From a virus: DNA of 64,000 bases. The position numbers and the translations under genes are program-made. The stretch lies in the IMG/VR virus record IMGVR_UViG_3300020202_000062, positions 1 through 64,000 of that record; one strand, written 5' to 3'. Below, one piece after another: positions 5,283-46,033 of this stretch. Position 1 is the first letter of the stretch. Each line of letters starts with the position of its first letter. The notes below the pieces were generated by a model. It had not been told where the DNA came from, ran no database searches, and saw only the letters and a list, made by a program, of their open reading frames with translations.

Positions 5283-5357
5283 TCGGAGGTAGTTCAATGG
5301 TAGAACGTCGCCCTCTGGAGGCGAATGTTGGGGGTTCGAGCCCTCCCCTCCGAGCCA
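5283..5357 (+). tRNA. tRNA-Gln(CTG)
   Basis: Cloverleaf; TCGCC-CTCTGGA-GGCGA; CCA encoded. Confidence 0.93.
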
Positions 5358-5740
5358 TGAGAACAAAGATCACTGTTAAGCGAGTCCATAACCTTTCCTA
5401 CGAAGAGTATAGGGAGTGCTATAAGGCTAACTACGGTAGCAATGGTTCTATCCGAGATGATCTCGTAGATTTTCGATACAACCGCAAGATTCAGGCTCAT
5501 GTCCTGATGCTACGCGATGATGCCAACCGGCTAATGGCGTGGGCTTTGGTTGATTTCAAGGAAAGCCACCCTACTATTCAGATCTGGGTCAAGGGTCCAT
5601 ATCGTCGCAAGGGTTATGGCGCTCGGCTATTCAAAAAGGCTGAGAATAGATGGGGTACTCCGTATGTATTTCCACATAATGATGTCGCTTCTTCTTTCTT
5701 TCAAAAGATGGAAGTCCCCGCAGACCTCAAGATATACTAA
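5357..5740 (+). CDS. GNAT-family acetyltransferase
   Basis: Motif A WVKGPYRRKGYGARL, N..A..FF; ATG overlaps the tRNA CCA. Confidence 0.75.
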   Translation: MRTKITVKRVHNLSYEEYRECYKANYGSNGSIRDDLVDFRYNRKIQAHVLMLRDDANRLMAWALVDFKESHPTIQIWVKGPYRRKGYGARLFKKAENRWGTPYVFPHNDVASSFFQKMEVPADLKIY

Positions 5741-5901
5741 TGCCAAATCCTAAGCGTCTACCACTGAAGACATGCTCTCGATGCGGTGTTCAGAGCAGGA
5801 CTGTAGAGCGTGTCAAGAGAGCCAACAACGCACTACTGTGTGCTGAATGTATCATTGATGGAATACTGGACGTGTGGGAAGCGGATATAGATGCTGATTG
5901 A
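5740..5901 (+). CDS. small CxxC protein (below ORF-track cutoff)
   Basis: TAATG coupling; CSRC and CAEC. Confidence 0.6.
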   Translation: MPNPKRLPLKTCSRCGVQSRTVERVKRANNALLCAECIIDGILDVWEADIDAD

Positions 5902-6106
5902 TGTCAACTTCAAGTGGTCAGACGAGCACGGTAGGTGTCAAGACTGTGGTCGTCCAGCGGCGTACAAAGTTCTAGGTATGTACCAGAGAGCCGACAGACC
6001 CGGAAGCGAGAACACTTTCGAGAAGATGTGTGCTGTCTGTGCCGCATACAATGTATGGGAATCTGGTAACTCTTATCGGTTAGAGTATCTGTTCGATCCG
6101 AACTAG
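5891..6106 (+). CDS. small zinc-finger hypothetical protein
   Basis: CQDC, CAVC. Confidence 0.65.
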   Translation: MLIDVNFKWSDEHGRCQDCGRPAAYKVLGMYQRADRPGSENTFEKMCAVCAAYNVWESGNSYRLEYLFDPN

Positions 6107-6111
6107 GTTTC

Positions 6112-6191
6112 GGGCCAGTGGCGCAATTGGCTGACGCGCATGACTCAAAATCATGTCCTTCGGGATGTGGGTTCGAATCCCACCTGGCTCA
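6112..6191 (+). tRNA. tRNA-Leu(CAA)
   Basis: CATGA-CTCAAAA-TCATG; long variable arm TCC-TTCG-GGA; CCA not encoded. Confidence 0.93.
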
Positions 6192-6203
6192 CTTGGAGAA
6201 GAA

Positions 6204-6710
6204 GTGTTAGTAGTAGACAAATGGCTAAGTCGACATGTCGACTGGTCTGAGGATCCTGTAACCTTCGAATCCCTCGAGAAGGATCCAGTAGGTGCACCTA
6301 TCACTCCTATCAATCTCTTTCAATTGCTAAACCTAGAAGAAGATCTGAGATCTCTGTTCCTCAAGACTGGTTTGGTTAAGTCTAACTCGGACATTAAGCG
6401 CCTGATCAAGCAGAATGGCCTTAGGGTCAACGGTGTTACAATATTAGAAGAGAATCTAACCTCAACTCTGTTGACATTGTTTTCTGCTGATCACCCAACA
6501 AAGATGCGACCTACGGTCGTGCTTCGTAGAGGGAAGTCAGATCTCTGGGTGTTCGAGATTGCTTCAACCAACAAGACTCCTACCTTTGTGATCTGTAAGG
6601 GTCAAGAACTCAGCAAACTGAAGTGGCTCAAGTTTTGGCAATGGCGCAAGCGTTGGGAGTGTCATTGGTCTAAGTGGCCATGCTATGAATGTGCTTATGG
6701 AGCAAAATGA
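6204..6710 (+). CDS. standalone S4-like RNA-binding protein (TyrRS C-terminal-like)
   Basis: L..LF..TGLVKSNSDIKRLIKQNGLRVNG...VLRRGK; GTG start after GGAG. Confidence 0.7.
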   Translation: MLVVDKWLSRHVDWSEDPVTFESLEKDPVGAPITPINLFQLLNLEEDLRSLFLKTGLVKSNSDIKRLIKQNGLRVNGVTILEENLTSTLLTLFSADHPTKMRPTVVLRRGKSDLWVFEIASTNKTPTFVICKGQELSKLKWLKFWQWRKRWECHWSKWPCYECAYGAK

Positions 6711-6967
6711 AGAACTACGTAGCAGAACTATCCCAAGCGTGGAAAAATAACTACCCTTCTTGTGCAACCTATTCTGAGTATAATTGCTATCTCATAGAAT
6801 ACGTATGTGATGTGTCGGATGGTCACGGAATCAGTGCGCCTAAGGGTATGAGGTTCTGGTGGCGCAGCAAGACCATAACCGAGAGTAATTCCAATAGGTA
6901 CAAGTTAGTCTATGACGGTAGGTTAGACATCTCCTATGACGTACCTACATGCAAAAGGAAAGCCTGA
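6707..6967 (+). CDS. hypothetical protein (MKNY...GMRxW...KLxYDG...CKRK family)
   Basis: ATGA overlap; similar to 39340..39615. Confidence 0.65.
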   Translation: MKNYVAELSQAWKNNYPSCATYSEYNCYLIEYVCDVSDGHGISAPKGMRFWWRSKTITESNSNRYKLVYDGRLDISYDVPTCKRKA

Positions 6968-7114
6968 TGGTAGCAGTATTGGTGATCAGCCTCATTCTGA
7001 TGTTCTTCGTATGCGTTATAGAGGACGACGCAGAAGTAGGTTGGAACCTACTTACTTTATGGCTGGTTATATGCGGGTTCTTTTTCTTGTTGGCAACGGT
7101 AGGGATTGCACTAA

Positions 7115-7846
7115 ATGACAATTGATGCTTCGAAGTTTCAGAAGATCGCTGTAGTTACTGGTGCGGGCATCTCAGCCCCCAGTGGGCTACCGACGTTCCG
7201 AGGTAAGGACGACAGTCTTTGGAACGACGAAGACTTCATGAACAAGTCCCACATCAACTACATCCGTTCTCATGTAGATCATGTAGATGAGATGTGGGGA
7301 TATTGGCGGCCATTCCGTGAAGGTTTAGCGACAGTCGAGCCAAACCCGGCACACTACGCTCTGGCCATCGCTGGTGAGCGTCAGCAGATCACGATCGGCA
7401 CGCAGAACATCGACGGCCTACATCAGAAGGCTGGATCTCATAACGTCTATGAACTGCACGGAACACTGTTCGAAGATAAGTGTCTAGATGAGTGCCAAGA
7501 GAATGAGTTCGGTAACTGGAACGTGAATGCTTGGCCCGCTGGTGAACATGATGCATGTCCAGAGTGTGGCGGTCCAATCCGACCTAACGCAGTGTTCTTT
7601 GGTGAGTTTCTACCACAGCGAGTAGTAGCAGCAGTAGAGAAGGCTGTCATTGAGTGTGACCTCTTTATGATGGTAGGTACATCTGGCATCGTATACCCAG
7701 TCGCCGGATATGTAGATGTAGCCTCCAAGTGGGGTAAGCCGACTCTCCTGGTCAACGATCAAGAGTGGGATCATCCTTATCCGTTTACTGAAAAGATCTT
7801 TGGCGACTGCGCCGAGATTCTTCCGGAGTTGTTCGGTGTCAACTAG
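7115..7846 (+). CDS. cobB: Sir2/CobB NAD-dependent deacylase
   Basis: TGAGISAPSGLPTFRG, TQNIDGLHQKAG, ELHG, Zn-site Cys pairs, RPNAVFFGE, VGTSG.VYP. Confidence 0.93.
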   Translation: MTIDASKFQKIAVVTGAGISAPSGLPTFRGKDDSLWNDEDFMNKSHINYIRSHVDHVDEMWGYWRPFREGLATVEPNPAHYALAIAGERQQITIGTQNIDGLHQKAGSHNVYELHGTLFEDKCLDECQENEFGNWNVNAWPAGEHDACPECGGPIRPNAVFFGEFLPQRVVAAVEKAVIECDLFMMVGTSGIVYPVAGYVDVASKWGKPTLLVNDQEWDHPYPFTEKIFGDCAEILPELFGVN

Positions 7847-8025
7847 TACTACTCTTGGGGTATTCAAAGAGTCTATCGATGGAGCAACAGAAACTGTGAA
7901 CACCACGGGCGGAACAACATTCTTAGAGATACTCATACCAGGCTTAATCCTATTGGGGTTGATTGTCTGGTCTCTAGTTGAGTACACAAAGAATCACAAC
8001 GACGACTAAGACTCAGCCCCTACAA

Positions 8026-8102
8026 GGGGCGTGAGGCAGCTGGTTGAGCCGCCATTCTTATAAAATGGGATTACGAGACGGGTTCGATTCCCGTACGCCC
8101 TA
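8026..8102 (+). tRNA. tRNA-Ile(TAT), atypical
   Basis: CCATT-CTTATAA-AATGG; T arm ACGGG-TTCGATT-CCCGT; 9-nt variable region; G at position 8. Confidence 0.75.
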
Positions 8103-8114
8103 CTCGGAGTACAA

Positions 8115-8372
8115 ATGTTTCTTATCTATTACCTCCTAATCGGCATTGTGCTGTTGCCTTTGTTTGGTAGGTGGGCAATGTACATTGATCGCCTAGATCG
8201 AGGCGCATCTTCATCTGTTGATGGGGACTTGGTTTTTGTTGTGCTCGTCATGGGTGGACTTCTGTGGCCCTTGGGATTCCTTTTGTTCATTGGCTTACAT
8301 ATCTATGTTGCGGCCTCTATAGCACCTAAAGAAAATCTTATGAGTCGATTTATCTTCGGGAGAAAGAAATGA
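8115..8372 (+). CDS. membrane protein
   Basis: GGAG SD; two TM segments. Confidence 0.7.
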   Translation: MFLIYYLLIGIVLLPLFGRWAMYIDRLDRGASSSVDGDLVFVVLVMGGLLWPLGFLLFIGLHIYVAASIAPKENLMSRFIFGRKK

Positions 8373-8584
8373 AGGTCTGCGATGTGTGCATGCAGAAGGG
8401 TGATCTTAAAGATGTCGAGTGCCAACTAATTGTTGGTAGCGATGTCACCAGGATCCGATCTACCGAAGTCTGTCCAACCTGTATCGGCAAACTGCGATGG
8501 TCCTTCGATGGGGGCATCAAAAAGATGGCAGAGTTCAAACAGGTCGAGGAACGTTACTATGACCGTCTCTGGTCTAAAAAGTAA
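8369..8584 (+). CDS. small CxxC protein
   Basis: CDVC, CPTC; ATGA overlap. Confidence 0.65.
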   Translation: MKVCDVCMQKGDLKDVECQLIVGSDVTRIRSTEVCPTCIGKLRWSFDGGIKKMAEFKQVEERYYDRLWSKK

Positions 8585-8672
8585 GGAAAGTTGGCCGAAC
8601 GGTAAGGCACCGGATTGCTAATCCGAGATCTCTCGCAAGGGGGAACAGGTTCAACTCCTGTACTTTCCGCCA
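8585..8672 (+). tRNA. tRNA-Ser(GCT)
   Basis: Long variable arm, G73, CCA. Confidence 0.93.
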
Positions 8673-8674
8673 CG

Positions 8675-8737
8675 GGACGTGAGCGACAGGGTCGTCGCGG
8701 GGCACCGCGTCTACGGGTTCGATTCCCGTTCGGTCCA
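8675..8737 (+). ncRNA. shrunken tRNA-like RNA (no anticodon loop)
   Basis: Acceptor GGAC..GTCC-A; T arm ACGGG-TTCGATT-CCCGT; inner hairpins GCGAC/GTCGT and CGCGG-GGCA-CCGCG. Confidence 0.6.
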
Positions 8738-8743
8738 CTTCTT

Positions 8744-8787
8744 GGGCCGCTCTGGGCAGAGTAGGGGTTCGAGTCCCCCACGTTCCA
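8744..8787 (+). ncRNA. minimal tRNA-like RNA (acceptor, one hairpin, T arm)
   Basis: GGGG-TTCGAGT-CCCC T arm; GGGCCG/CGTTCC-A with G3:U70. Confidence 0.45.
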
Positions 8788-8789
8788 CT

Positions 8790-8879
8790 GGAGGGTTGAC
8801 AGAAATGGCAATCGTGCCGGTCTTGAAAACCGAGGCCTCTCGCAAGGGAGTGGGGGTTCGAATCCCTTGCCCTCCGCCA
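8790..8879 (+). tRNA. tRNA-Ser(TGA)
   Basis: Long variable arm; CTTGAAA loop; GCCA end. Confidence 0.93.
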
Positions 8880-9091
8880 TGAGAAAAGAAAATGCAGTCA
8901 TCATAGAACCAGATGGTTCGTTTGAGCGACCGTTTACAGACAAACGAGATCCACGGATCGAACTGGGCCATCATTTCAAGCGGGGCGACATGATCTATGT
9001 CGTATCGCACATTAGTCACGACGGTATGATTATGGATCCTCCAAAAGGAAACAAAATCTACGTCCGTTATTATTATCCATGGGAAACCTAA
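8879..9091 (+). CDS. hypothetical protein
   Basis: ATG overlaps tRNA CCA; next gene follows closely. Confidence 0.65.
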   Translation: MRKENAVIIEPDGSFERPFTDKRDPRIELGHHFKRGDMIYVVSHISHDGMIMDPPKGNKIYVRYYYPWET

Positions 9092-9092
9092 A

Positions 9093-9386
9093 ATGGCATT
9101 CGACTACATCTATATCTCGACCGATCTTAAGGTTCTAGGGCGCAAAGTCCAAGACGAGTATCATACTGAAGATGGTGGGCAGATGCTCGGCAGGGGTGGA
9201 TCTATTGAGCGCTGTATGGAGATTGCTAACTACTGGTTGCGTTGCGAACCAATTCCCTACGGAGTGAAGTATAGTACCGACTTAGAGATCCCTATGGTGA
9301 TTCAGCGCGAGACTACCACTATGCCAATAGAAGAATGGCTAGAGCAGATGGCCGACATACGAGCACAGTTTAATAAAGTTGGCTGA
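9093..9386 (+). CDS. hypothetical protein
   Basis: 97 aa ORF in a gene run. Confidence 0.65.
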   Translation: MAFDYIYISTDLKVLGRKVQDEYHTEDGGQMLGRGGSIERCMEIANYWLRCEPIPYGVKYSTDLEIPMVIQRETTTMPIEEWLEQMADIRAQFNKVG

Positions 9387-9520
9387 GATATTCGAACTAG
9401 TTCAGTTAAATAGATATGGGCGCACGGATATCCTCATTGTGGGCGGCAATAAAGACGGCCTTACTAAACTGCGACGTAAACATGGATACGGGGATAGTTG
9501 GGTACGAGACTACACCGGCA

Positions 9521-9657
9521 AACCAGTCGAGTTCCCTAAGCGAGGACAGTCCTCTCGCCAACGGTGAGTAGTATAGATAAGTTTTCTCTGAAGCTTTGAT
9601 AGCTTCCGTCTATCTGGGTAGAGTACTCACGTCTCTGGCGAAGAACTTCGACTAGTT
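9521..9657 (+). ncRNA. candidate rod-shaped structured RNA
   Basis: Nested complementary blocks AGTCGA/TCGACT, GTTC/GAAC, TCGCCA/TGGCGA, GTGAGTA/TACTCAC, TAGATA/TATCTG, GAAGCT/AGCTTC. Confidence 0.5.
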
Positions 9658-9682
9658 GACAGTTTATCACACGGGACCAAAC

Positions 9683-9853
9683 ATGGCCATTAAGATCAAG
9701 GCAGAAAAACCGACCTATCGGATATACTGTGAAGAGTGCAACAAGAGTCACGGTGGTCTCACTCTCGAAGAAGCAAAGAAGAATGCCGCATGGCACAACG
9801 GTTACCATAACGATGAGTTAGACATAATCCGAATACTTTCAAGCCATCGATAG
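9683..9853 (+). CDS. small CxxC..H..H protein
   Basis: CEEC ... WHNGYH. Confidence 0.55.
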   Translation: MAIKIKAEKPTYRIYCEECNKSHGGLTLEEAKKNAAWHNGYHNDELDIIRILSSHR

Positions 9854-9860
9854 TAATCTA

Positions 9861-9932
9861 GCACCTCTAGCTCAATGGCAGAGCTACGGACTTTTAATCC
9901 GTTGGTTCTGGGTTCGAATCCCAGGGGGTGTA
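9861..9932 (+). tRNA. tRNA-Lys(TTT)
   Basis: ACGGA-CTTTTAA-TCCGT; cloverleaf. Confidence 0.93.
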
Positions 9933-9935
9933 CTT

Positions 9936-10100
9936 ATGGAAGATAATGTATGTCTCGTCTGTAGCAAGACGATTATAGGTATCGGCGTAAACGTCAAGAA
10001 CTGCTGGTGGAGAGTTGGAGACAACGGCCAGATGGAACAAGCCAATGAAGATGGCCTTGTTTGCCTGCGTTGCCTACGAAAAGAACTTGCGGAGGCGTAA
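9936..10100 (+). CDS. small CxxC protein (54 aa)
   Basis: MEDNVCLVC...CLRC; TAATG-coupled to next gene. Confidence 0.6.
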   Translation: MEDNVCLVCSKTIIGIGVNVKNCWWRVGDNGQMEQANEDGLVCLRCLRKELAEA

Positions 10101-10276
10101 TGTCTCTACGTGAGCACTTCACTGAAGACGGCAGGCCAAAGACGGGCTTCAGAGACGAGCAAGTAGTTGCAGAGGCTGTAGAGAACATTCGAGAGTTCGA
10201 GCCAGACAAAAACATCGACTATTACACCTGCTCATTCTGTGGCGAATACCACATCGGAACTTGGAAGAAGAAATGA
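10100..10276 (+). CDS. small protein with YxCxxCxxYHIG motif
   Basis: GGAGG SD; TAATG coupling. Confidence 0.65.
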   Translation: MSLREHFTEDGRPKTGFRDEQVVAEAVENIREFEPDKNIDYYTCSFCGEYHIGTWKKK

Positions 10277-10446
10277 TCATCAATACGCTGATTACATTAG
10301 GTATATTTGCAGCGCTTGCTCTAGTGATCACCCTCATGATCATATGGCCTCCACTCATACTTGGGATAGCGGCTGCTCCTGCGTTTATGATGGTGTACTT
10401 ATTTGTAGATGAGGAAAGGAGAGGGCGTGCACGACGATCTAGGTGA
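10273..10446 (+). CDS. small membrane protein
   Basis: Hydrophobic; ATGA overlap. Confidence 0.6.
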   Translation: MIINTLITLGIFAALALVITLMIIWPPLILGIAAAPAFMMVYLFVDEERRGRARRSR

Positions 10447-11191
10447 TCGGATGAAACGGTACGAGCATGTGACTCGCGCCTACCTTCCTCGCCGTACATA
10501 TACAATCGTTCGTGTAGATGGTCGCGCTTTCCACACCCTCACCAAGGGCTGTGAACGTCCGTATGACGAGAATCTAGCGGACTACATGGATCTGACTGCT
10601 GTGGCTCTCTGCAAAGAGATGGCAGGTGCACAGTTTGCATTCGTGCAGTCTGATGAGATCTCTGTTCTTCTGACAGATTTTGCTTCGACGCACACTGAGC
10701 CTTGGTTCGGCGGCAATATCCAGAAGATCTGTTCCATCTCAGCAGCAGTAGCAACCGCCGCGTTCAACAACTATTGGTGGCCTGCTGCGCCATGGCAGGA
10801 CTTTAGAGGTACTGCTTATTTCGATTCCCGTGTATTCACCATACCTGACCCAACCGAAGTGCACAACTACTTCGTTTGGCGACAGAAGGATGCTACACGG
10901 AATTCGATCTCAATGGCCGCACAGTCCCATTTCAGCCACGCTGAATTGCAAGGACTGTCTTCTGATGCACTGCAAGAAAAGATGTGGGTAGAAAAAGATG
11001 TCAACTGGAACAACTATCCAGTAGGCTTCAAGCGCGGTCGTTTGATCCGCAAGGTGTCGTACGAGCGAGTGATTCCCGCAGTGAATGGTGCACCTGAAAA
11101 GGTTGTTCCATCGTGGCGCTGGGCTTCGACTGAGCCAGATGTATTTACGGCATCAGAACAATTAAAGGAACTTATTCCTTCATACTCTTGA
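10427..11191 (+). CDS. Thg1-like tRNA(His) guanylyltransferase / 3'-5' polymerase
   Basis: RMKRYE, VRVDGRAFH, QSDEIS, FDSRVF, YFVWRQKDATRNSI, FKRG. Confidence 0.92.
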   Translation: MHDDLGDRMKRYEHVTRAYLPRRTYTIVRVDGRAFHTLTKGCERPYDENLADYMDLTAVALCKEMAGAQFAFVQSDEISVLLTDFASTHTEPWFGGNIQKICSISAAVATAAFNNYWWPAAPWQDFRGTAYFDSRVFTIPDPTEVHNYFVWRQKDATRNSISMAAQSHFSHAELQGLSSDALQEKMWVEKDVNWNNYPVGFKRGRLIRKVSYERVIPAVNGAPEKVVPSWRWASTEPDVFTASEQLKELIPSYS

Positions 11192-11197
11192 GATCTA

Positions 11198-11206
11198 TGA
11201 TACTAT
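11198..11206 (+). promoter_or_regulatory. extended -10 promoter upstream of tmRNA
   Basis: TGaTACTAT ending 11 nt before ssrA, inside the inverted repeat GAGATCTAT/ATAGATCTC. Confidence 0.5.
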
Positions 11207-11217
11207 AGATCTCTCAC

Positions 11218-11592
11218 GGGGCCGACAGGCATCGACTTCGGTAAACTGAGTATCGATTTGCAACCCGAGTTCGTTGACAGACTCGTTAAACAGTTGACAA
11301 AAAACAAATGCAGATGAGAACCTGCTAGTTGCTGCCTAGTCTTCGGATTAGTAAACAGTAACTCTGTTAGTCCAAGAGACCGAACGGGGCTTGATCCAAA
11401 TGCCTGGCAACAGAATTGGATTTGACAAGCGGGAAAGACCCTTGACTCTGAGGAAAAGACTCCAGTGACTTCTAGGAATGAGACTAGACGAACGAGACCC
11501 GCTCGGTGCTAGCGTCAAGGCAGAACTCGGGAATGGTTGTATCGGAAAGATATGATGGCCGAAACACGGGGGTTCGATTCCCCCCGGCTCCA
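11218..11592 (+). ncRNA. ssrA: tmRNA
   Basis: GGGGCCG/CGGCTCC-A acceptor with G3:U70; T arm; tag ORF 11310-11339 ADENLLVAA*. Confidence 0.95.
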
Positions 11593-11595
11593 CTT

Positions 11596-11718
11596 ATGAT
11601 AGAAAAAGAGCAATATCAAGGTCCGGATGGTGGGTACTCTTCTATCGAAGATGTACGAAACGAAACTCGGGCTAGGTTTTTCAAGAGCAACGAGGAAGAC
11701 GATGTGCAAAGCGAATGA
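11596..11718 (+). CDS. small hypothetical protein
   Basis: ATG 4 nt after the tmRNA discriminator. Confidence 0.5.
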   Translation: MIEKEQYQGPDGGYSSIEDVRNETRARFFKSNEEDDVQSE

Positions 11719-11778
11719 TTGCAAGAACTTAGCAGTAGGATTAGGTCTATGTTCGAAGCATCTAGCAGAGCACTTCAA

Positions 11779-11854
11779 GGGTCTGTAGCCCAATGGCAGA
11801 GGCACATGCCTTAGGAGCATGCAAGTGTGGGTTCGAATCCCACCAGACCTACCA
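11779..11854 (+). tRNA. tRNA-Leu(TAG), short variable loop
   Basis: CATGC-CTTAGGA-GCATG; 5-nt variable loop; ACCA. Confidence 0.9.
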
Positions 11855-11856
11855 AT

Positions 11857-11930
11857 GGACGTGTCGCCAAGCGGTCTAAGGCACCGGCTTTACACGCCGA
11901 CATCCGCAGGTTCGAATCCTGCCACGTCTA
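11857..11930 (+). tRNA. tRNA-Val(TAC)
   Basis: TTTACAC loop; cloverleaf. Confidence 0.9.
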
Positions 11931-11932
11931 CT

Positions 11933-12151
11933 ATGGGATTTAGAATAATCGAACCTAAACAAGTACCGCATAATTGCGAACGACCCAATCTGCTTAGCGG
12001 TACGTTCTCAAGAGATGGTAAAATGTATTCTGTCGGAACAAAGATCGAATGTGATGTTTGTGATGCAGTATGGGAAATAAAGAGTTGGTATCAATACAAC
12101 GAATCTGGGTACCAGTGGCAGAAGATCAAACAAGGTAGGCTAGACTACTAA
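11933..12151 (+). CDS. hypothetical protein
   Basis: ATG just after tRNA; HxC and CDVC. Confidence 0.65.
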   Translation: MGFRIIEPKQVPHNCERPNLLSGTFSRDGKMYSVGTKIECDVCDAVWEIKSWYQYNESGYQWQKIKQGRLDY

Positions 12152-12155
12152 CATT

Positions 12156-12226
12156 GCACCGGTGCCCGAGCGGCTAGGGGGCGGTTTGCAACACCGACTA
12201 CGTGGGTTCGAATCCCGCCTGGTGCT
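12156..12226 (+). tRNA. tRNA-Cys(GCA)
   Basis: TTGCAAC loop; U73. Confidence 0.9.
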
Positions 12227-12304
12227 CTAAAAAGGTATGGTCTCCTATAGTTGGTTACTATAGGCACAGTCCGTGGAGAATTCACCACCTCGCGATGGAC
12301 ACAA

Positions 12305-12382
12305 CTACCCGTAGCGCAGTTTGGTCAGCGCGCCTGCTTTGGGAGCAGGAGGCCGCAGGTTCGAATCCTGCCGGGTAGACCA
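12305..12382 (+). tRNA. tRNA-Pro(TGG)
   Basis: CCTGC-TTTGGGA-GCAGG; C1-G72; ACCA. Confidence 0.95.
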
Positions 12383-12525
12383 TGACAATTAGATTGAATC
12401 GTAACCGATACCCCTATTCAAGCAGTGCGCTTCGGAGATGGGGTCCTATTGCTGCTATAGTGGTGATCGTAGCAATCATCACAGCAGTAGTCCTCGCCGG
12501 TGGATCATCTATTCATAGATCCTGA
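12382..12525 (+). CDS. small single-TM protein (47 aa)
   Basis: ATG overlaps CCA; IAAIVVIVAIITAVVLAGG. Confidence 0.55.
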   Translation: MTIRLNRNRYPYSSSALRRWGPIAAIVVIVAIITAVVLAGGSSIHRS

Positions 12526-12567
12526 AGGCTCATACGTCTTCACGTGTCCAGGCCCGTATAGGTAGAA

Positions 12568-12894
12568 ATGGAAAGTCCAGAAGAGATCCTATCCGACTAC
12601 ATTGTTAAGAAGTCTGGCTGGGACGACAACGCACACACGCGCAAGTTTGGGTGCACTGTCACAGCATCTAATGTAGTCGTCGGTACGGATGGTGACGGGT
12701 GCTGTGAGATGTGCTACAGTGAATACGCTGCGATCTTCTATGATCTAGAGTGCACGTGTCCAGCACAGGTGCCACAGAAGAAGAACCCAGAGAAGATGAC
12801 GGCCAACACAAACCGTGTCAACTTTAAGCGGGCATCGTTTAGTGCATACGACTTTCCGCTGCTTGATCTAGTCAACCATGTTCTAAGGACATAA
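12568..12894 (+). CDS. Cys-rich hypothetical protein
   Basis: 108 aa; GCCEMC. Confidence 0.7.
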   Translation: MESPEEILSDYIVKKSGWDDNAHTRKFGCTVTASNVVVGTDGDGCCEMCYSEYAAIFYDLECTCPAQVPQKKNPEKMTANTNRVNFKRASFSAYDFPLLDLVNHVLRT

Positions 12895-12903
12895 ATAACA
12901 CGA

Positions 12904-12976
12904 TCCGGTAGGGCGGGACGGTGACCGCACCTGGCTCATAATCAGGATAATGTGGGTTCGATTCCCATTGCCGGTA
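12904..12976 (+). tRNA. tRNA-Met(CAT)-type
   Basis: CCTGG-CTCATAA-TCAGG; 1:72 mismatch. Confidence 0.85.
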
Positions 12977-13014
12977 CTAAAATCCCCAAGTGACCATTCA
13001 CAAGGGGGTTATAT

Positions 13015-13825: not shown

Positions 13826-13836
13826 TACAAGATCGA

Positions 13837-19100: not shown

Positions 19101-19478
19101 GTGACGGTGGATATCAGTTGGGAAGAATACAAAGATAAGCTGTATCGTTCTCGGTTAGACTGGCAGAACGATTCAGCCTGTCGGAGTATCGAAACAGCAA
19201 AGATGTATCCGTCATCTGAAAAGAATCAGGGGGTAGTTGCAGAGACAATCTGCGCTCCCTGCCCGGTTCGACTGAACTGTCTCGTCTATGCACTAGCATA
19301 TGACGAGCAGTTCGGTGTATGGGGTGGCACTACGGAAAAAGAACGAGCCAAGTTCCAGAAGGAACTTAAGGAGTTCACCACCCTATCTGTAAGAAGGAAG
19401 AACCTAGAGTCAATGGCTGCGCGTCACGTAGGTATTGCAGAGGTCTCCTCTCTTGCGGTGCAAGTAGTTAATGCTTAA
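19101..19478 (+). CDS. whiB: WhiB-family transcriptional regulator
   Basis: W...SAC..., CAPCPVRLNC, FGVWGGT.E.ER. Confidence 0.93.
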   Translation: MTVDISWEEYKDKLYRSRLDWQNDSACRSIETAKMYPSSEKNQGVVAETICAPCPVRLNCLVYALAYDEQFGVWGGTTEKERAKFQKELKEFTTLSVRRKNLESMAARHVGIAEVSSLAVQVVNA

Positions 19479-37458: not shown

Positions 37459-37529
37459 GTCTCCGTAGTATAGAGGTAGAACAGATCTCTCCTAAAGATC
37501 AGGCCTGGGTTCGACTCCCAGCGGAGATG
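37459..37529 (+). tRNA. tRNA-Arg(CCT)
   Basis: GATCT-CTCCTAA-AGATC. Confidence 0.9.
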
Positions 37530-37531
37530 CT

Positions 37532-37741
37532 ATGATAAAATGTGACTGGAACGGCCACCACGACAAGGGATATGATCCCGACACCCTTTGTCATGGTCAA
37601 TCTATATTTGAATTGATCGATCCACCCATGACATATCAAATCTGTATAGATCACGCAGAAGCCGCCGAAAGGTATGTGGAACGTTCTGGTGGTAGATCCC
37701 GCATCGATAGCAAGCCTCAGTGTAGACGTGCAAAAGCCTAG
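37532..37741 (+). CDS. hypothetical protein
   Basis: ATG 3 nt after the tRNA discriminator. Confidence 0.55.
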   Translation: MIKCDWNGHHDKGYDPDTLCHGQSIFELIDPPMTYQICIDHAEAAERYVERSGGRSRIDSKPQCRRAKA

Positions 37742-39709: not shown

Positions 39710-40057
39710 GTGAATAATATAGTAGAATTAAAGGACACTCTTAGAGAGTGTCTTTCTTTTTGCCCGGACGACTACAGGGGTCCTGTATCCTTACATTCGA
39801 AGCCCGATGGTGCGAGTCTGTTTATCGTTTGGAATGGCGCATACTTTCCCACTATGAACCTACGCAGGGGTGTCTGTGGCTGGATTAGATCATATGATCT
39901 CTCCAATAATATCTGGAATCTCATCGGTCTCTATGACGAGAAGACTGGCCTTGTCAAGTGGACGGATAGCCAAGGTTATGTATATGGTTCTGTAGACGCA
40001 TTCCACAACATGGTATTCGGTAAGGGTAGACTGTCATGCAAGAGGAAAGTAAGTTAG
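39710..40057 (+). CDS. hypothetical protein (ends CKRKVS)
   Basis: GTG start after the tRNA. Confidence 0.6.
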   Translation: MNNIVELKDTLRECLSFCPDDYRGPVSLHSKPDGASLFIVWNGAYFPTMNLRRGVCGWIRSYDLSNNIWNLIGLYDEKTGLVKWTDSQGYVYGSVDAFHNMVFGKGRLSCKRKVS

Positions 40058-40731
40058 TTAAGTATCCTCGTACCATGCACCTACCGTGGTCTCCTGGCTT
40101 ACAAAACGATGACAGAGTGATAGAAGATCTGTCAGTCCTAGAATCTTGTGACGATGTAGTAGTCACAGAGAAGATGGATGGAGAGAATACTACTCTCTAT
40201 TGCGATACGGCTCATGCTAGGTCTTTGACGAGCGGCCCGCATCCATCTCGCGCCAAAGTCAAAGAACTCTGGCAAAGTCTCCGTTGGGATATTCCCCCAG
40301 GTATGCGTATCTGTGGTGAGAATATGTACGCAAAGCATTCAATCTATTATGACAGCCTCAGATCCTACTTCCTCGTCTTCAATATCTGGCTCGGAGATGT
40401 ATGTCTCTCCTGGGAAGATACAATTCTCTGGTGTGGACTTCTCGGACTCGATACAGTCCCTGTCCTATACCGTGGCAAATGGAACGAATCAGTCTGGTCC
40501 GATCCATATCATGCCGAGCGGTGGATTCGTCAAGGGCGAGATGATCATGACGGTGGCTCCGAGCGGGAAGGATTTGTTGTCCGACTGGCTGAAGAAATAC
40601 GGCTTGACGACTTCGGAAGAAGTGTGGCCAAGTATGTACGCAAAGGTCACGTACAAACAGACGAACACTGGATGTCGCAGGAAATCACGCCAAATAAACT
40701 AAGTGCGAACGTAGATAAAGATATCTACTAA
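40036..40731 (+). CDS. RNA ligase (ATP-dependent, Rnl2-like family)
   Basis: KYPRT.HLPWS, TEKMDGEN, GEN.YA.HSI.Y, EG.VVR, KYVR. Confidence 0.9.
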   Translation: MQEESKLVKYPRTMHLPWSPGLQNDDRVIEDLSVLESCDDVVVTEKMDGENTTLYCDTAHARSLTSGPHPSRAKVKELWQSLRWDIPPGMRICGENMYAKHSIYYDSLRSYFLVFNIWLGDVCLSWEDTILWCGLLGLDTVPVLYRGKWNESVWSDPYHAERWIRQGRDDHDGGSEREGFVVRLAEEIRLDDFGRSVAKYVRKGHVQTDEHWMSQEITPNKLSANVDKDIY

Positions 40732-41604: not shown

Positions 41605-41679
41605 GCGGGTGTATCTCGGCGGTTAGAGCAACTGAATTTTAATCAGTTGGTCGGGGGTTCAAATCCCTTACGTATCGCG
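41605..41679 (+). pseudogene. degenerate tRNA-Lys(TTT)
   Basis: Good anticodon and T arms; mispaired acceptor stem. Confidence 0.55.
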
Positions 41680-41901: not shown

Positions 41902-42420
41902 ATGTCGCAACTATACGATCCCACAAGAATCGACCTGAAATTAGATCCGTTCGAGATGCGGATGACAGGTACAGCAAGGCACGGAATGGTGCCCTTCGAT
42001 GTACCTTACATCTCAGAGATCGCAGACAATCTATTCCAGGGCGGATGTGCTAACGATCTACTACTGCCTGAGAACATCAAGCATGTAGTGTCGCTGTACA
42101 AATGGGAAGCATATTCCTGCGAACATGAGTTAGATTCTGTAACTGTCGTTACTATGTACGATTCAACGTCCACACCAATCAATAGAGATCAGGTTGTGGC
42201 ACTGGCAAACTGGGTGAATGTCTGTCGTAAGACTGGACCTACCTTAGTTCATTGTCAGGCTGGTTTGAATAGGTCTTCTTTGGTCGCGGCGCTTGCCCTG
42301 ATCTTGGGGGATGGTTTGACTCCTGAGGAAGCAATTGCTACCCTCAAGGAGAGGAGATCACCTGCTTGCTTATGCAATCATGTGTTCACTGAATGGCTAC
42401 TTGAAGAGAAGTATAAGTAG
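41902..42420 (+). CDS. dual-specificity/tyrosine protein phosphatase
   Basis: LVHCQAGLNRS (HCx5R). Confidence 0.9.
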   Translation: MSQLYDPTRIDLKLDPFEMRMTGTARHGMVPFDVPYISEIADNLFQGGCANDLLLPENIKHVVSLYKWEAYSCEHELDSVTVVTMYDSTSTPINRDQVVALANWVNVCRKTGPTLVHCQAGLNRSSLVAALALILGDGLTPEEAIATLKERRSPACLCNHVFTEWLLEEKYK

Positions 42421-42777: not shown

Positions 42778-42849
42778 GGTCTATTCGTCTAGTGGTTAAG
42801 ACGCCAGATTCTCAATCTGGAAACGGGGTTTCGACTACCCCATAGACTG
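42778..42849 (+). tRNA. tRNA-Glu(CTC)
   Basis: CCAGA-TTCTCAA-TCTGG. Confidence 0.92.
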
Positions 42850-42852
42850 CTT

Positions 42853-42963
42853 ATGGAAGAATATGAATGCGATCAAGAATGTGCCGTCCACTTTGATGGG
42901 TGTGACGGCTTTTGTGATCATCTCGACGGTCACGTAAACGGATGCTGGAGAAAAAGTGACTAA
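42853..42963 (+). CDS. 36-aa Cys/His-rich peptide
   Basis: ATG 4 nt after the tRNA discriminator. Confidence 0.45.
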   Translation: MEEYECDQECAVHFDGCDGFCDHLDGHVNGCWRKSD

Positions 42964-43106: not shown

Positions 43107-43895
43107 ATGCGAATCATGATGGCAGGCGACACACATAGCAACTTTGAGCAGTGGGAGTACCTATTCCCCATCGCTAAGGACCTTAACGTTGATGTCATCA
43201 TGCAACTCGGAGACTTTGGATACTGGGCGCACACCAAGGGTGGACTTAACCACCTTGATGCTCTACACGATCTTGCTGTAGAGTACGATATCCCAATCTA
43301 CTGGCTGGATGGCAACCACGAGAACCATGTGCACCTACGGGTGAACAGGATCGCAGTATGGAATATGTTCTGTCTTATGGCAGGCGTAGATCCTGGGCCA
43401 TTCGTCCCGATCCGCGGCACGCATATTGTGCACACGCCGCGGGGTGCAACCTGGGAGTGGGACGGCGTTAAGTTCCTAGCAGTTGGCGGTGCGTTCAGTA
43501 TCGACAGAGGCTGGAGAGATGTTGGGGAGTCCTTCTGGTTTGAAGAGGAACTCACTGACGCTGAAGCAGACTATGCTTCTAGAGTTGGGAAGGTCGATGT
43601 GCTGGTGTCACACGACGTTCCGATGGGCACGGATATGGCGTACATGTTCATCCGACAGGGTAGGTCGTACAGACCTATTCCGCAGGCTGAACCTAACCGC
43701 CGACGCTTGAGGCAGGTGGTCGAGGCCACGAAGCCTAACTACATATACCATGGCCATTACCATATCTGCTATAAGAACTACCTCGAACTTAATAGCGGAC
43801 ACACCATTGTCGTCATGGGCCTCGGTGCTGATGGGATGGAACAGGATTCCTGGACTATTCTTGACACTGAGGACTTGACAAATCCGGTTGGATAG
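43107..43895 (+). CDS. calcineurin-like metallophosphoesterase
   Basis: GDTH, GDFG, DGNHE, SHD, HGHYH. Confidence 0.92.
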   Translation: MRIMMAGDTHSNFEQWEYLFPIAKDLNVDVIMQLGDFGYWAHTKGGLNHLDALHDLAVEYDIPIYWLDGNHENHVHLRVNRIAVWNMFCLMAGVDPGPFVPIRGTHIVHTPRGATWEWDGVKFLAVGGAFSIDRGWRDVGESFWFEEELTDAEADYASRVGKVDVLVSHDVPMGTDMAYMFIRQGRSYRPIPQAEPNRRRLRQVVEATKPNYIYHGHYHICYKNYLELNSGHTIVVMGLGADGMEQDSWTILDTEDLTNPVG

Positions 43896-44662: not shown

Positions 44663-44762
44663 GCCCCGGTAGCTTAACGGTAAAGCAGCGGATAAAGAGA
44701 CTCAGTATCTCACGGTTTGGGTCTCTCCGTCGATGGTGGTTCGAATCCACCCTGGGGCACCA
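44663..44762 (+). ncRNA. tRNA-like RNA with a long hairpin replacing the anticodon loop
   Basis: Intact acceptor, D and T arms and ACCA; insert GAGACTCAG/TTGGGTCTC. Confidence 0.75.
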
Positions 44763-44763
44763 T

Positions 44764-44831
44764 GGAAGAAATAGTGTAACCCGGTAGCACAGGCGACGGC
44801 CAGGCGAGGTTCGAATCCTCATCTTCCACCA
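44764..44831 (+). ncRNA. tRNA-like RNA with truncated anticodon arm
   Basis: GGAAGA/TCTTCC-ACCA; D arm; GGC-GACG-GCC; T arm. Confidence 0.7.
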
Positions 44832-44832
44832 C

Positions 44833-44939
44833 GCCCCGATAGCTTAGTGGGAAAGCCTCTTTCTGGATCCTGTGAGGCTAGCAGGGAAAGGTTAGAGTAG
44901 CGCGCAAACACGGAGGTTCGATTCCTCCTCGGGGTACCA
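44833..44939 (+). ncRNA. tRNA-like RNA with expanded anticodon/variable region
   Basis: GCCCCGA/TCGGGGT-ACCA; D and T arms intact; ~45-nt insert. Confidence 0.75.
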
Positions 44940-44940
44940 A

Positions 44941-45082
44941 GAGCCTGTAGTGCACGCCGAAGCGTGACGTAACATGAGTAGCCATACGAATCCTAGGCCA
45001 CCCTTATGGCGAGGGGTGTTACGGTAGTGGGAGCACGACCGCCAGAAAGCGGTTAGGATGGGTTCGAATCCCATCAGGTTCA
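44941..45082 (+). ncRNA. tRNA-like RNA with structured D-loop insert
   Basis: GAGCCTG/CAGGTTC-A; GTGC/GCAC D stem enclosing ~80 nt; 6-nt anticodon loop. Confidence 0.7.
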
Positions 45083-45083
45083 C

Positions 45084-45398
45084 ATGAAAACTAAAATAGA
45101 CAGAGACCTTTTATCAGAGTTAACAACCAGTACAGAACTTGAAGGCTGGACAGTGCTTCAGGATAAACACCTTCGCAACAAGAGGTGGACTGAACAGCGG
45201 CGCATCGTCCTAACCAATCCAGAGTTCCCTGGCATATGGGCTTTCGATTATGAAATTGGACTTACCGAGATGCAGGACTTCTCTTGGTATGACCACTACC
45301 CAGAAGAGATAGAGTTGTTCCAGGTTGTACCTAGAACAGAAACGGTAATGGTGTATGAAAAAGCCCCTGTGGAAGAGCACGATAGTAATCTGGACTGA
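45084..45398 (+). CDS. hypothetical protein
   Basis: RWT..., Y.IGLTEMQ; ATG just after the tRNA-like RNA. Confidence 0.75.
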   Translation: MKTKIDRDLLSELTTSTELEGWTVLQDKHLRNKRWTEQRRIVLTNPEFPGIWAFDYEIGLTEMQDFSWYDHYPEEIELFQVVPRTETVMVYEKAPVEEHDSNLD

Positions 45399-45552
45399 GT
45401 TCGATCCATACGATACAGAGATCGACACTCTAGCGTGGCACGCAATGGAAGGCGACGGGTATTGTTCGCGCCACATTGCAGATCACATAGCAGATCCAGA
45501 GTCAGATCCCGATTGGGATGGAACAGAATTCTTCTGGGATCCAGAAGAGTAA
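45355..45552 (+). CDS. acidic hypothetical protein
   Basis: 65 aa ORF. Confidence 0.55.
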   Translation: MKKPLWKSTIVIWTEFDPYDTEIDTLAWHAMEGDGYCSRHIADHIADPESDPDWDGTEFFWDPEE

Positions 45553-45597
45553 GGCTTGAGGTAGGGTGTTCGGGTGTGTGCGCCCTGCCTCAAATTT

Positions 45598-45669
45598 GCT
45601 TCGGTAGTTCAATGGTAGAACAGCGCCCTCTAAAAGCGTATGTTGAGGGTTCGAATCCCTTCCGAGGCG
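45598..45669 (+). tRNA. amber suppressor tRNA (CTA), tRNA-Gln-like body
   Basis: Loop CT-CTA-AA with anticodon at 45630-45632; D arm identical to tRNA-Gln(CTG) at 5283; G73. Confidence 0.85.
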
Positions 45670-45674
45670 CTCAA

Positions 45675-45858
45675 GATCACGTAGCTCAGGTGGATAGAGC
45701 AGCGCAAAAACGGAGGCGTGGTATCTAGAGAAGGTTTGCGGATGCACCGGGACCGGGCCGCATGCAGTAATGTATGTGGTTGGGGAACCTTAGCCCCCGG
45801 CAGGGAAGCGCGTTATCCTAACTCTAGCGTTGCGGAGGTTCGAGTCCTCCCGTGATCA
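45675..45858 (+). ncRNA. tRNA-like RNA with ~120-nt structured insert in the anticodon arm
   Basis: GATCACG/CGTGATC-A; GCTC/GAGC D arm; GGAGG-TTCGAGT-CCTCC T arm. Confidence 0.75.
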
Positions 45859-45859
45859 C

Positions 45860-46033
45860 ATGAAAACATATCAAGATATATTCGAAAGCATTGTCGCATT
45901 ACTTGATGCTCCTGTTACAGATGACCCGGTGGACATTCTCAAGTTAATCGCGGCAGAGTGTGAATATCCAGGTGAGTACACCTACTTTGATAACAAGGGT
46001 CAGTGGGTAAGATACCCTATAGAAGGCGAGTAA
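45860..46033 (+). CDS. hypothetical protein
   Basis: ATG 2 nt after the discriminator. Confidence 0.6.
   Translation: MKTYQDIFESIVALLDAPVTDDPVDILKLIAAECEYPGEYTYFDNKGQWVRYPIEGE

Follow-up and report, generated by a model that had tools for sequence, protein, structure and literature searches.

Ten small phage genes without an SD start 2-4 bases past tRNAs, and tRNA excision probably frees them as almost leaderless messages

Results

tRNA arrays with flush small genes

Ten small genes start 2-4 bases past a tRNA-type element and lack an SD, suggesting that excision of the tRNAs probably frees almost leaderless messages. Our best reading of the ten junctions, which we hold to be probable though far from certain, is that the messages are released by processing and belong to the leaderless class, with the 3' cut made at or next to C74. 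The window, i.e., the whole stretch of 64,000 nt that was analysed, has two tRNA regions, at about 5.2-14 kb and 36-47 kb, both dense arrays on a single strand; small genes there are interleaved with tRNAs, a tmRNA and tRNA-shaped RNAs, with minimal spacer on either side. In 15 cases, the stop codon of an ORF lies -1 to 11 nt ahead of a tRNA 5' end. No convincing terminator was found on the + strand within the first array. We found no paper in the literature describing flush tRNA-gene starts in phages.

The DNA comes from an uncultured giant soil phage. Its host is very probably an actinobacterium, as judged by a WhiB-family gene and an acetyltransferase (GNAT) gene resembling those of Streptomyces phages. 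Among the control genomes, only Corynebacterium had a match to PF02467 (WhiB), and the GNAT gene has its nearest homologues in Streptomyces phages of the Stanwilliamsviridae. The phage also codes for a PF01743 nucleotidyltransferase (CCA-adding family), a Thg1-like enzyme, an RNA ligase and a SpoU methylase.

Eight discriminators were placed with ARAGORN and with Rfam, whose model stops at the discriminator. The ten ATGs that the original prediction had put 2-4 nt past a discriminator were all exact (Table 1). Eight of the upstream elements are standard tRNAs or the tmRNA; the other two are tRNA-shaped RNAs with large inserts. The RNA at 44941-45083 keeps an acceptor stem that closes the fold (-54.7 kcal/mol, z -2.9) as well as a GGTTCGAATCC T-arm, but ARAGORN gave no call for it, whether or not introns were allowed. 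The RNA at 45675-45859 was called solely with introns allowed.

Table 1. Elements upstream of the flush starts, the flush ORFs and the host marker gene
Feature	Coordinates	Strand	Details
tRNA-Gln(CTG)	5283..5357	+	CCA encoded; discriminator G5354; G-CCAtg, ATG 5357
tRNA-Ser(TGA)	8790..8879	+	CCA encoded; discriminator G8876; G-CCAtg, ATG 8879
tRNA-Lys(TTT)	9861..9933	+	no CCA; discriminator A9932; A-CTTatg, ATG 9936
tmRNA	11218..11593	+	tag ADENLLVAA; discriminator A11592; A-CTTatg, ATG 11596
tRNA-Val(TAC)	11857..11931	+	no CCA; discriminator A11930; A-CTatg, ATG 11933
tRNA-Pro(TGG)	12305..12382	+	CCA encoded; discriminator A12379; A-CCAtg, ATG 12382
tRNA-Arg(CCT)	37459..37530	+	no CCA; discriminator G37529; G-CTatg, ATG 37532
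tRNA-Glu(CTC)	42778..42850	+	no CCA; discriminator G42849; G-CTTatg, ATG 42853
tRNA-shaped RNA	44941..45083	+	large insert; A45082-C-atg, ATG 45084
tRNA-shaped RNA	45675..45859	+	110-nt insert in anticodon loop; A45858-C-atg, ATG 45860
GNAT acetyltransferase gene	5357..5740	+	127 aa; starts at tRNA position 76
Orphan ORF	8879..9091	+	70 aa; tRNA position 76; exact gene call; coding score top 5%
CxxC...CxxC small protein ORF	9936..10100	+	54 aa; discriminator +4; exact gene call
ORF	11596..11718	+	40 aa; +4; coding score top 2%; no public gene call
ORF	11933..12151	+	72 aa; fills tRNA-Val/tRNA-Cys gap, 3 nt after Val and 4 nt before Cys
ORF, one hydrophobic helix	12382..12525	+	47 aa; tRNA position 76; unconfirmed
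ORF	37532..37741	+	69 aa; +3; exact gene call in three sources
Cys-rich ORF	42853..42963	+	36 aa; +4; unconfirmed, no gene call
Gene	45084..45398	+	104 aa; +2; exact gene call; coding score top 3%
ORF	45860..46033	+	57 aa; +2; exact gene call; highest coding score of the ten
WhiB-family gene, actinobacterial host marker	19161..19352	+	PF02467, E = 1.5e-19, above cut-off

The juxtaposition is real and strongly non-random. An ATG lies at +2 to +4 of 12 of the 32 tRNA-type 3' ends (6.8% expected, p = 6e-7); at 10 of the 32 it is the start of an ORF of 35 or more codons (2.6% expected, p = 6e-9). Two flush ATGs have no gene behind them: that at 44762, which has 5 codons and is followed by the next tRNA-like RNA, and that at 11855, followed by tRNA-Val. 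Start offsets are bimodal, with ten starts at +2 to +4 that have no usable SD, nine at +13 to +39 that have one, and no credible start at +5 to +12 downstream of the tRNA-type 3' ends. Pairing of the flush starts with the anti-SD (median -2.35 kcal/mol) equals that at random positions (-2.7 kcal/mol), whereas pairing of the nine spaced starts is stronger (-6.4 kcal/mol; Mann-Whitney p = 0.006). SD-like G-runs occur at two junctions (Lys-ttt and Arg-cct), both within the acceptor stem, in agreement with the view that there is no room for an unpaired SD. Against our best reading, these two runs could act on unfolded precursors. All ten flush ORFs start with ATG (about 70% expected, p = 0.03), their first 30 nt have less structure than 30-mers drawn at random (p = 1.6e-4), and their codons 2-6 contain 53% A, compared with 27% genome-wide.

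Flush starts in other phages

We counted flush junctions, defined as an ATG or GTG at +1 to +5 with which an ORF of 35 or more codons begins, in five cultured actinophages and seven proteobacterial phages. They amounted to 10 of 25 here, 12 of 105 in the other actinophages and 2 of 105 in the proteobacterial phages. Both the phage studied here (p = 6e-7) and the other actinophages (p = 0.010) differ from the proteobacterial set. The tRNA-to-ATG statistics across related phages that had been suggested as a check separate actinophages from proteobacterial phages, but the 12 of 105 does not exceed the roughly 9% expected at random positions (p = 0.23). Flush starts are tolerated, not selected, in the five other actinophages, and are avoided in the proteobacterial phages. 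C74 is present in 27 of 27 tRNAs here and in 146 of the 148 tRNAs of the other actinophages, among which just 6 encode CCA; a T at position 75 is frequent across all trailers.

Curated annotations place CDS starts 0-3 nt past the annotated tRNA end in Streptomyces phages Tomas (for example, genes 152 and 210) and Wakanda (159), Arthrobacter phage Racecar (135, 152) and Gordonia phage GodonK (128, 149). Cultured actinophages have 1-3 flush junctions per genome, about 11% of their junctions, as against 40% here, and several of their flush genes code for HNH homing nucleases, whereas no flush gene here codes for a nuclease. No paper interpreting these flush CDS starts was found in the literature.

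Packing could by itself have pushed the ORFs onto the tRNAs, tRNA excision being incidental and initiation being internal and SD-independent, on unprocessed or differently cut transcripts, by way of the A-rich, unstructured starts. We give this explanation a real but minor chance. The arrays are indeed packed very tightly on both sides of the tRNAs, A-rich, open start regions would also favour internal initiation of this kind, 53% of the leadered genes of M. smegmatis have no canonical SD (PMC6448022), and flush starts in other actinophages are not commoner than at random positions. However, compaction predicts continuous short spacers, yet there is a gap from +4 to +13, and the enrichment here far exceeds the null. 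Moreover, unprocessed RNA would hold a folded GC-rich acceptor stem and T-arm directly 5' of the AUG, and since the tRNAs need excision anyway, processed ends near the AUG must arise.

Release by tRNA processing and the 3' nuclease

Under the processing reading that we favour, the arrays would be transcribed into long precursors, in which host RNase P would cut each tRNA 5' end and a host endonuclease would cut each 3' end at or adjacent to the invariant C74. A CCA-adding enzyme would complete the tRNA, and the phage carries a member of that family. At the ten genes, the 5' end of the downstream product would fall 0-3 nt ahead of the AUG; this product would carry a 5' monophosphate, lack an SD and be translated via the leaderless route widely used by actinobacteria. 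Nine other genes downstream of tRNAs retain an ordinary spacer of 13-39 nt with an SD. Against this reading, 5'-monophosphate ends invite decay by RNase E or RNase J.

The original prediction assumed that RNase Z cuts just after the discriminator. Three of the ten junctions encode CCA, and for most RNase Z enzymes of bacteria an encoded CCA acts as an anti-determinant. Published end maps for Streptomyces coelicolor and Propionibacterium acnes place the cut of CCA-encoding tRNAs between C74 and C75; for CCA-less tRNAs they locate it no more closely than 'a few nucleotides downstream' (PMC4681348, PMC3848588). The site preferred by mycobacterial RNase E is RN↓CNU, cut 5' of the C (PMC10641625), and the three R-C↓C-A-U(G) junctions match this site exactly. 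These maps favour another nuclease, most likely of the actinobacterial RNase E type, which cuts 5' of a C and between C74 and C75; RNase Z is the other candidate. Thus, the proposal that tRNA processing frees near-leaderless mRNAs is retained as the best reading, but RNase Z is not the best-supported nuclease.

The appeal to actinobacterial leaderless translation fits the very likely host, and such hosts make wide use of leaderless messages, which in M. smegmatis include those with leaders of up to 5 nt (PMC6448022). Conversely, most of the ten messages would retain a leader of 1-3 nt under any assumed cut; in Caulobacter, leaderless initiation is about halved per added 5' nucleotide, and in E. 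coli a single 5' nucleotide is reported to be inhibitory (PMC8459731).

At the three CCAtg junctions, and perhaps others, a given precursor might instead yield either a mature tRNA, through a downstream cut and trimming that destroy the start codon, or an intact mRNA. In that case the overlap would fix a ratio of tRNA to protein output rather than couple the two positively. The A of CCA (tRNA position 76) is the A of the start codon at 5357, 8879 and 12382, and E. coli-type maturation cuts downstream of CCA before exonuclease trimming (PMC4681348). We nevertheless regard this as improbable: Streptomyces and Propionibacterium cut most CCA-encoding tRNAs between the two Cs, which keeps C-AUG intact and the tRNA repairable by a CCA-adding enzyme, and the phage encodes an enzyme of that family.

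Support for the ten ORFs

At least seven of the ten flush ORFs have independent support as genes. Exact public gene calls exist for six and not for the other four, and codon scores are ambiguous in five. For the GNAT gene, which has an exact call in a public collection and a coding score in the top 1%, the Pfam PF00583 and phrog_12636 alignments begin at residue 1, and this residue matches the annotated start of gene 190 of Streptomyces phage Tomas. The gene at 45084 matches phrog_6343 (E = 2.6e-10) and has homologues in Aeromonas jumbo phages. Homologues of ORF 11933 are small proteins of 77 and 66 aa, the 77-aa one aligned residue 2 to residue 2. ORF 9936 has a weak PHROG match and an ambiguous coding score, and its first bases are similar to those of ORF 42853; a homologue search with ORF 8879 found none. 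ORF 11596 is uncertain because an overlapping ORF of 53 aa (11627-11788) has an AAGG SD, and ORF 12382 has no gene call and a neutral coding score. One to three of ORFs 11596, 12382 and 42853 are without independent support.

It is therefore worth asking whether several of the ten are genes at all, or whether their ATGs belong to a 3' trailer (C-T-T-A-T-G or C-C-A-T-G) preferred for tRNA processing and not for translation. The four ORFs lacking a public call, the five ambiguous codon scores, the ATGs at the same offset without a gene (44762 and 11855) and the frequent T at position 75 across all trailers are in line with this idea. We consider it quite improbable, as 10 of the 12 flush ATGs open ORFs of 36-127 codons (p = 6e-9), homologues exist for GNAT, ORF 11933 and ORF 45084, and no ATG was found in the trailers of tRNAs without a following gene. 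Finally, promoters within the tRNA genes that start transcription exactly at the ATGs, to give primary leaderless mRNAs, are very unlikely: they are the usual origin of actinobacterial leaderless genes (PMC6448022) and TAGACT lies at -10 to -5 of junction 42853, but the upstream sequences have no TANNNT -10 element at the right distance (near -12 to -7) at nine of the ten junctions, making a transcription start at the ATG unlikely, and sigma-70-like matches in the arrays are at chance level.

Discussion

The analogy with mitochondrial tRNA punctuation drawn originally is apt, since tRNAs directly flank ORFs on both sides in same-strand polycistronic units, with stops close to the next tRNA. 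Punctuation of animal mitochondrial transcripts by tRNAs was reportedly described by Ojala, Montoya and Attardi in 1981. As in the mitochondrial case (reviewed in PMC4394434 and PMC8601606), the downstream ORFs have a 0-3 nt leader and no SD, and in this phage tRNA excision would set the mRNA ends. In contrast to mitochondria, the setting is a virus of bacteria and no organelle; flush junctions make up only about half of those between a tRNA and a gene, SD leaders being kept at the others; and RNase Z is probably not the 3' nuclease. The stop codons of the phage are complete, so that, unlike in mitochondria, polyadenylation is not required to finish them.

Plant mitochondrial t-elements are tRNA-like processing signals next to mRNA ends. 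They resemble the RNAs at 44941-45083 and 45675-45859, both of which precede an ATG by 2 nt, in being non-decoding tRNA shapes with an acceptor stem and T-arm that adjoin mRNA ends. These two RNAs may likewise be processing signals, although other roles are possible. In E. coli, MazF generates leaderless mRNAs, and as cited in PMC3848588 (reference 96) it is likewise an endonuclease, not promoter choice, that makes the messages; MazF is a stress toxin that leaves 5'-OH ends at ACA sites, with no tRNA involved.

Actinobacterial tRNA 3' processing is matched by the invariant C74 of the phage tRNAs and by CCAUG, which fits R-C↓C-A-U; such a cut would leave the AUG intact and the tRNA repairable by a CCA-adding enzyme. 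Studies of this processing were made on host tRNAs and draw no connection between the cut and translation of the gene that follows. The leaderless mRNAs of M. smegmatis, M. tuberculosis, P. acnes and S. coelicolor (PMC6448022, PMC3898074, PMC3848588, PMC4681348) likewise have no SD, an AUG start and an open start region, and in this lineage leaders do not exceed 5 nt in about one-quarter of transcripts. The known cases are primary transcripts whose first codon is the start codon and whose 5' end is a triphosphate, whereas the phage 5' end would be made by processing, carry a monophosphate and mostly leave a leader of 1-3 nt.

Ten ORFs start flush against tRNA-type 3' ends

ARAGORN found 26 tRNAs and one tmRNA in the whole record, all on the + strand and all inside the window, and Rfam, with a tRNA model that stops at the discriminator (N73), added intron-like tRNAs to this set. 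The original prediction was that ten ORFs start at discriminator +2 to +4 (hereafter, flush), and reading of the sequence bore out all ten junction sequences and ATG positions, which are therefore confirmed as sequence anatomy. An ATG lies at +2 to +4 of 12 of the 32 tRNA-type 3' ends, against 6.8% expected (p = 6e-7), and is the start of an ORF of 35 codons or more at 10 of the 32, against 2.6% expected (p = 6e-9). Among the tRNAs with a gene behind them, ten starts are found at +2 to +4 and nine (the spaced class) at +13 to +39, and no credible start was found between +4 and +13. The nine spaced starts are preceded by GGAG, AGGA or AAGG and show strong anti-SD pairing (-6.4 kcal/mol; p = 0.006). 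Pairing in the flush class (median of -2.35 kcal/mol) is at the level of random positions (-2.7 kcal/mol), in agreement with the earlier view that these starts leave no room for an unpaired SD; two flush junctions carry SD-like runs, located within the acceptor stem. The start codon is ATG in all ten flush ORFs, the first 30 nt fold more weakly than random sequence (p = 1.6e-4), and codons 2 to 6 are 53% A. Judged on sequence, the flush class thus fits the leaderless class, with no SD, an AUG start and an accessible start region. ORF stops are found -1 to 11 nt ahead of tRNA 5' ends in 15 cases, and therefore the tRNAs punctuate genes on both sides. The proposed mitochondrial-type geometry, with same-strand tRNAs abutting ORFs on either side with a near-zero spacer, is thus present at ten starts and 15 stops.

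Positions of the junctions and of the genes discussed in the text
Feature	Position(s)	Basis or location
CCAtg junctions	ATGs at 5357, 8879, 12382	junction sequence
N73-CT-atg junctions	ATGs at 11933, 37532	junction sequence
N73-CTT-atg junctions	ATGs at 9936, 11596 (tmRNA), 42853	junction sequence
N73-C-atg junctions	ATGs at 45084, 45860	junction sequence
tRNA repair/processing genes	10409-11191, 14752-15351, 40036-40731, 41902-42420, 43107-43895; 2413-3144 of the 235,865-bp contig (L005)	within or next to tRNA arrays
NAD salvage set and SIR2-family gene	1238-5011 and 7115-7846	
WhiB-family gene	19161-19352	above Pfam cut-off
Flush HNH or Holliday-junction resolvase genes in cultured phages	Gordonia phage GodonK 18018-18461, 22190-22591; Arthrobacter phage Racecar 21819-22331	

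Public gene calls give the exact product for six of the ten flush ORFs, and the codon-usage score is in the top 5% for five. ORF 5357 (ORFs are named by the position of their ATG) codes for a GNAT acetyltransferase. Its first residue coincides with position 1 in the alignment to phrog_12636, and with the start annotated for the homologue in Streptomyces phage Tomas. ORF 11933 exactly occupies the interval from tRNA-Val to tRNA-Cys and has free-standing homologues of 66-77 residues, the closest aligning residue 2 to residue 2. ORF 45084 is a member of phrog_6343. ORFs 11596, 12382 and 42853 are unconfirmed as genes, and the first of these is overlapped by a competing ORF with an SD. An ATG 4 nt past the discriminator of tRNA-Leu(TAG) opens a frame (11855-12151) that is free of stops through the whole of tRNA-Val and in frame with ORF 11933, which is probably a coincidence.

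Source genome and host

The window covers the initial 64 kb of an IMG/VR record of 158,928 bp, estimated to be 75% complete. An ENA assembly has a contig of 235,865 bp from the same genome, of which the IMG/VR record is part; the window begins about 4.7 kb downstream of position 1 of this contig. The phage comes from soil metagenomes, and contigs from two DNA runs show almost no differences from the window across 5200-14000; a search for runs containing this interval listed no RNA run. Neither megablast nor tblastn revealed a close relative in a collection of 50,697 phage records, and none turned up in two viral-contig scans that used the GNAT and NadR-like proteins as queries. For ORFs 5357 and 8879, word-based protein searches retrieved nothing beyond the query.

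The phage uses the standard genetic code, and SD motifs are enriched four- to five-fold upstream of its long ORFs. It carries a WhiB-family gene, the profile of which matched only Corynebacterium among 14 control genomes, and the best homologues of its GNAT protein are found in Streptomyces phages of the Stanwilliamsviridae. From these two genes, the host is very probably an actinobacterium, which had been assumed and now has support, and would belong to a lineage proficient in leaderless translation.

A set of NAD salvage genes is found immediately upstream of the first tRNA array, and a SIR2-family gene between tRNAs. The set codes for an isochorismatase-family protein, possibly a nicotinamidase, an NMN transporter, a NadR-like adenylyltransferase and a QRPTase-like protein. 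An amber suppressor tRNA (45598-45670; anticodon CTA, 'Pyl' in the ARAGORN output) shares 82% identity with tRNA-Gln(CTG) at 5283-5357. Recoding of TAG, as this CUA suppressor might prompt, was rejected: code 11 already yields about 130 kb of long ORFs, and as TAG is the stop codon in 35 of these 111 ORFs, there is no genome-wide recoding.

Two of the upstream elements are tRNA-shaped RNAs with large inserts

That the element upstream of each flush ORF is a tRNA or tmRNA holds for eight of the ten, but not for ORFs 45084 and 45860. The elements preceding these two have inserts of about 70 nt and 110 nt, keep only the acceptor stem and T-arm, and lack the standard cloverleaf with a 7-nt anticodon loop of a canonical tRNA. 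Neither was detected by a default ARAGORN run or by Rfam. The element at 45675-45859 is called by ARAGORN only when introns are allowed; that at 44941-45083 is never called, but its fold closes the acceptor stem and includes a T-arm of standard form.

In all, five back-to-back tRNA-shaped RNAs that keep the acceptor stem and T-arm lie at 44663-45083 and 45675-45859, the first four 1 nt apart. Their D or anticodon regions are remodelled or expanded, with inserts that range from 13 to about 110 nt. Two of the five are detected by Rfam; ARAGORN detects three, and these only when introns are permitted. An Rfam match to YrlA at 45637-45706 (E = 6e-4, under the gathering score) was discarded as an artefact of tRNA adjacency, because it runs from the T-arm of one tRNA into the D-arm of its neighbour. 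Elsewhere, a GC-rich spacer of 117 nt between two tRNA-Ser genes (8673-8789) holds the T-arm-like GGGTTCGAGTCCC, and Rfam reports a partial tRNA match at 41612-41669; both may be tRNA remnants or further tRNA-like elements.

Flush starts across phages

We compared this phage with five cultured actinophages and seven proteobacterial phages by an automatic measure applied to their tRNA regions, namely the first ATG or GTG at +1 to +5 to begin an ORF of 35 codons or more. Flush junctions numbered 10/25 in this phage, 12/105 in the other actinophages and 2/105 in the proteobacterial phages, so that both this phage (p = 6e-7) and the other actinophages (p = 0.010) exceed the proteobacterial phages. 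With ARAGORN-called junctions only, this phage (8/23) also exceeds the other actinophages (p = 0.010). When random positions serve as the null (about 9%), no enrichment is seen in the other actinophages (p = 0.23), and the proteobacterial phages are depleted (p = 0.013). Where an SD is needed, flush starts are thus avoided; actinophages tolerate them, and this phage favours them strongly.

Curated annotations of Tomas, Racecar, Wakanda and GodonK contain CDS starts 0-3 nt past an annotated tRNA end; in those of a T5-like phage and GAP32, every gap from tRNA to CDS is at least 15 nt. Mycobacterium phage Phabba was uninformative, since few of its tRNAs are followed by a gene. Several flush genes of the cultured actinophages code for HNH homing endonucleases or a Holliday-junction resolvase, and both GodonK HNH genes also overlap the following tRNA by about 10 nt.

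Possible origin of the 5' ends

The tRNAs and ORFs of the arrays are all on one strand, the only strong + strand terminators lie at 39731-39755 and 46782-46807, and promoter-like matches are at chance level. Internal promoters that start transcription at the flush ATGs were rejected, since no suitably placed -10 element was found in nine of the ten junctions; any 5' end there would thus have to come from processing. Three copies of TACTATAG (5192-5199, 11201-11208 and 12256-12263), found 9, 10 and 42 nt upstream of tRNA-Gln, tmRNA and tRNA-Pro, could represent a -10-type promoter element; as a phage promoter the motif was rejected, three copies being not above chance.

CCA at positions 74-76 is an anti-determinant that blocks most bacterial RNase Z enzymes. 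RNase Z, the nuclease of the original prediction, is thus not the best-supported one, as CCA is encoded at three of the ten junctions (discriminators 5354, 8876 and 12379). A phage-encoded RNase Z-like metallo-beta-lactamase was rejected, none being found in the 159-kb record in a PF12706 search. CCA is absent from the other seven junctions, all of which have C at position 74, directly after the discriminator. The tRNAs of this phage have C74 without exception (27/27), as do 146/148 of those from the other actinophages, among which only 6 tRNAs encode CCA. In end maps of S. coelicolor and P. acnes, CCA-encoding tRNAs are cut between the two Cs (PMC4681348, PMC3848588). Mycobacterial RNase E cuts 5' of cytidine, at RN↓CNU, and in vivo mapping puts C at +1 in more than 90% of sites (PMC10641625, PMC6448022). 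The three CCAUG junctions, as R-C↓C-A-U, fit this sequence exactly, and C74 places a cytidine in single-stranded RNA beside the acceptor stem, as an RNase E-type cut requires of the sequence. A cut at R-C↓C-A-U would spare C-AUG and leave a tRNA that a CCA-adding enzyme could finish. A PF01743 nucleotidyltransferase is among the phage's own genes, and Thg1-like, RNA-ligase and SpoU genes are found in the arrays and next to them. The repair and processing genes as a whole code for a Thg1-like guanylyltransferase, a SpoU methylase, an RNA ligase, a dual-specificity phosphatase, a metallophosphatase and a PF01743 (CCA-adding/poly(A) polymerase) head-domain protein.

Proposed release of flush genes by tRNA processing

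From the published tRNA processing sites of Streptomyces and Propionibacterium, we infer mRNA 5' ends within 0-5 nt of the flush ATGs. Depending on the cut site, the processed mRNAs would have leaders of 0-3 nt; in mycobacteria, leaders of 5 nt or less belong to the leaderless class (PMC6448022). On the sequence evidence, release of the flush genes by tRNA processing is plausible, and on balance we lean towards it. Against it, leaderless initiation in Caulobacter is about halved by each extra 5' nucleotide, and E. coli is reportedly stricter still (PMC8459731); the SD-like acceptor-stem runs at two junctions and the three unconfirmed ORFs also count against this mechanism. In the papers found by our literature search, leaderless mRNAs arise only by primary transcription or by MazF cleavage, and none reports that tRNA processing releases phage genes.

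If the processed RNAs are translated, the tRNA genes of large actinophages would double as decoders and as processing signals that make translatable messages, a route to leaderless mRNAs without a promoter at each gene. This would also explain the RBS-less genes flush against tRNAs in curated actinophage annotations and provide a rule for calling such starts. The idea is directly testable in the cultured relatives Tomas, Wakanda, Racecar and GodonK.

A broader proposal, that tRNA-shaped RNAs serve as a general punctuation of expression, cut by RNase P and by an RNase E-type activity at C74, with the non-decoding ones kept mainly as signals, seems to us unlikely. Under this proposal, host RNase P and the C74 cut would together dice long early transcripts into monophosphorylated mRNAs of the leaderless class, and the expression of small genes would be tied to the tRNA-processing capacity of the host. 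The elements at 44941-45083 and 45675-45859, each followed by C-ATG, would be retained mainly as processing signals, as are the t-elements of plant mitochondria, to which these non-decoding RNAs may be likened. In our literature search, tRNA punctuation was found only for organelles. If the processed RNAs are translated, the principle of mitochondrial punctuation would apply to bacterial viruses as well, and general punctuation by tRNA-shaped RNAs would be the bacterial-virus counterpart of the organellar system.
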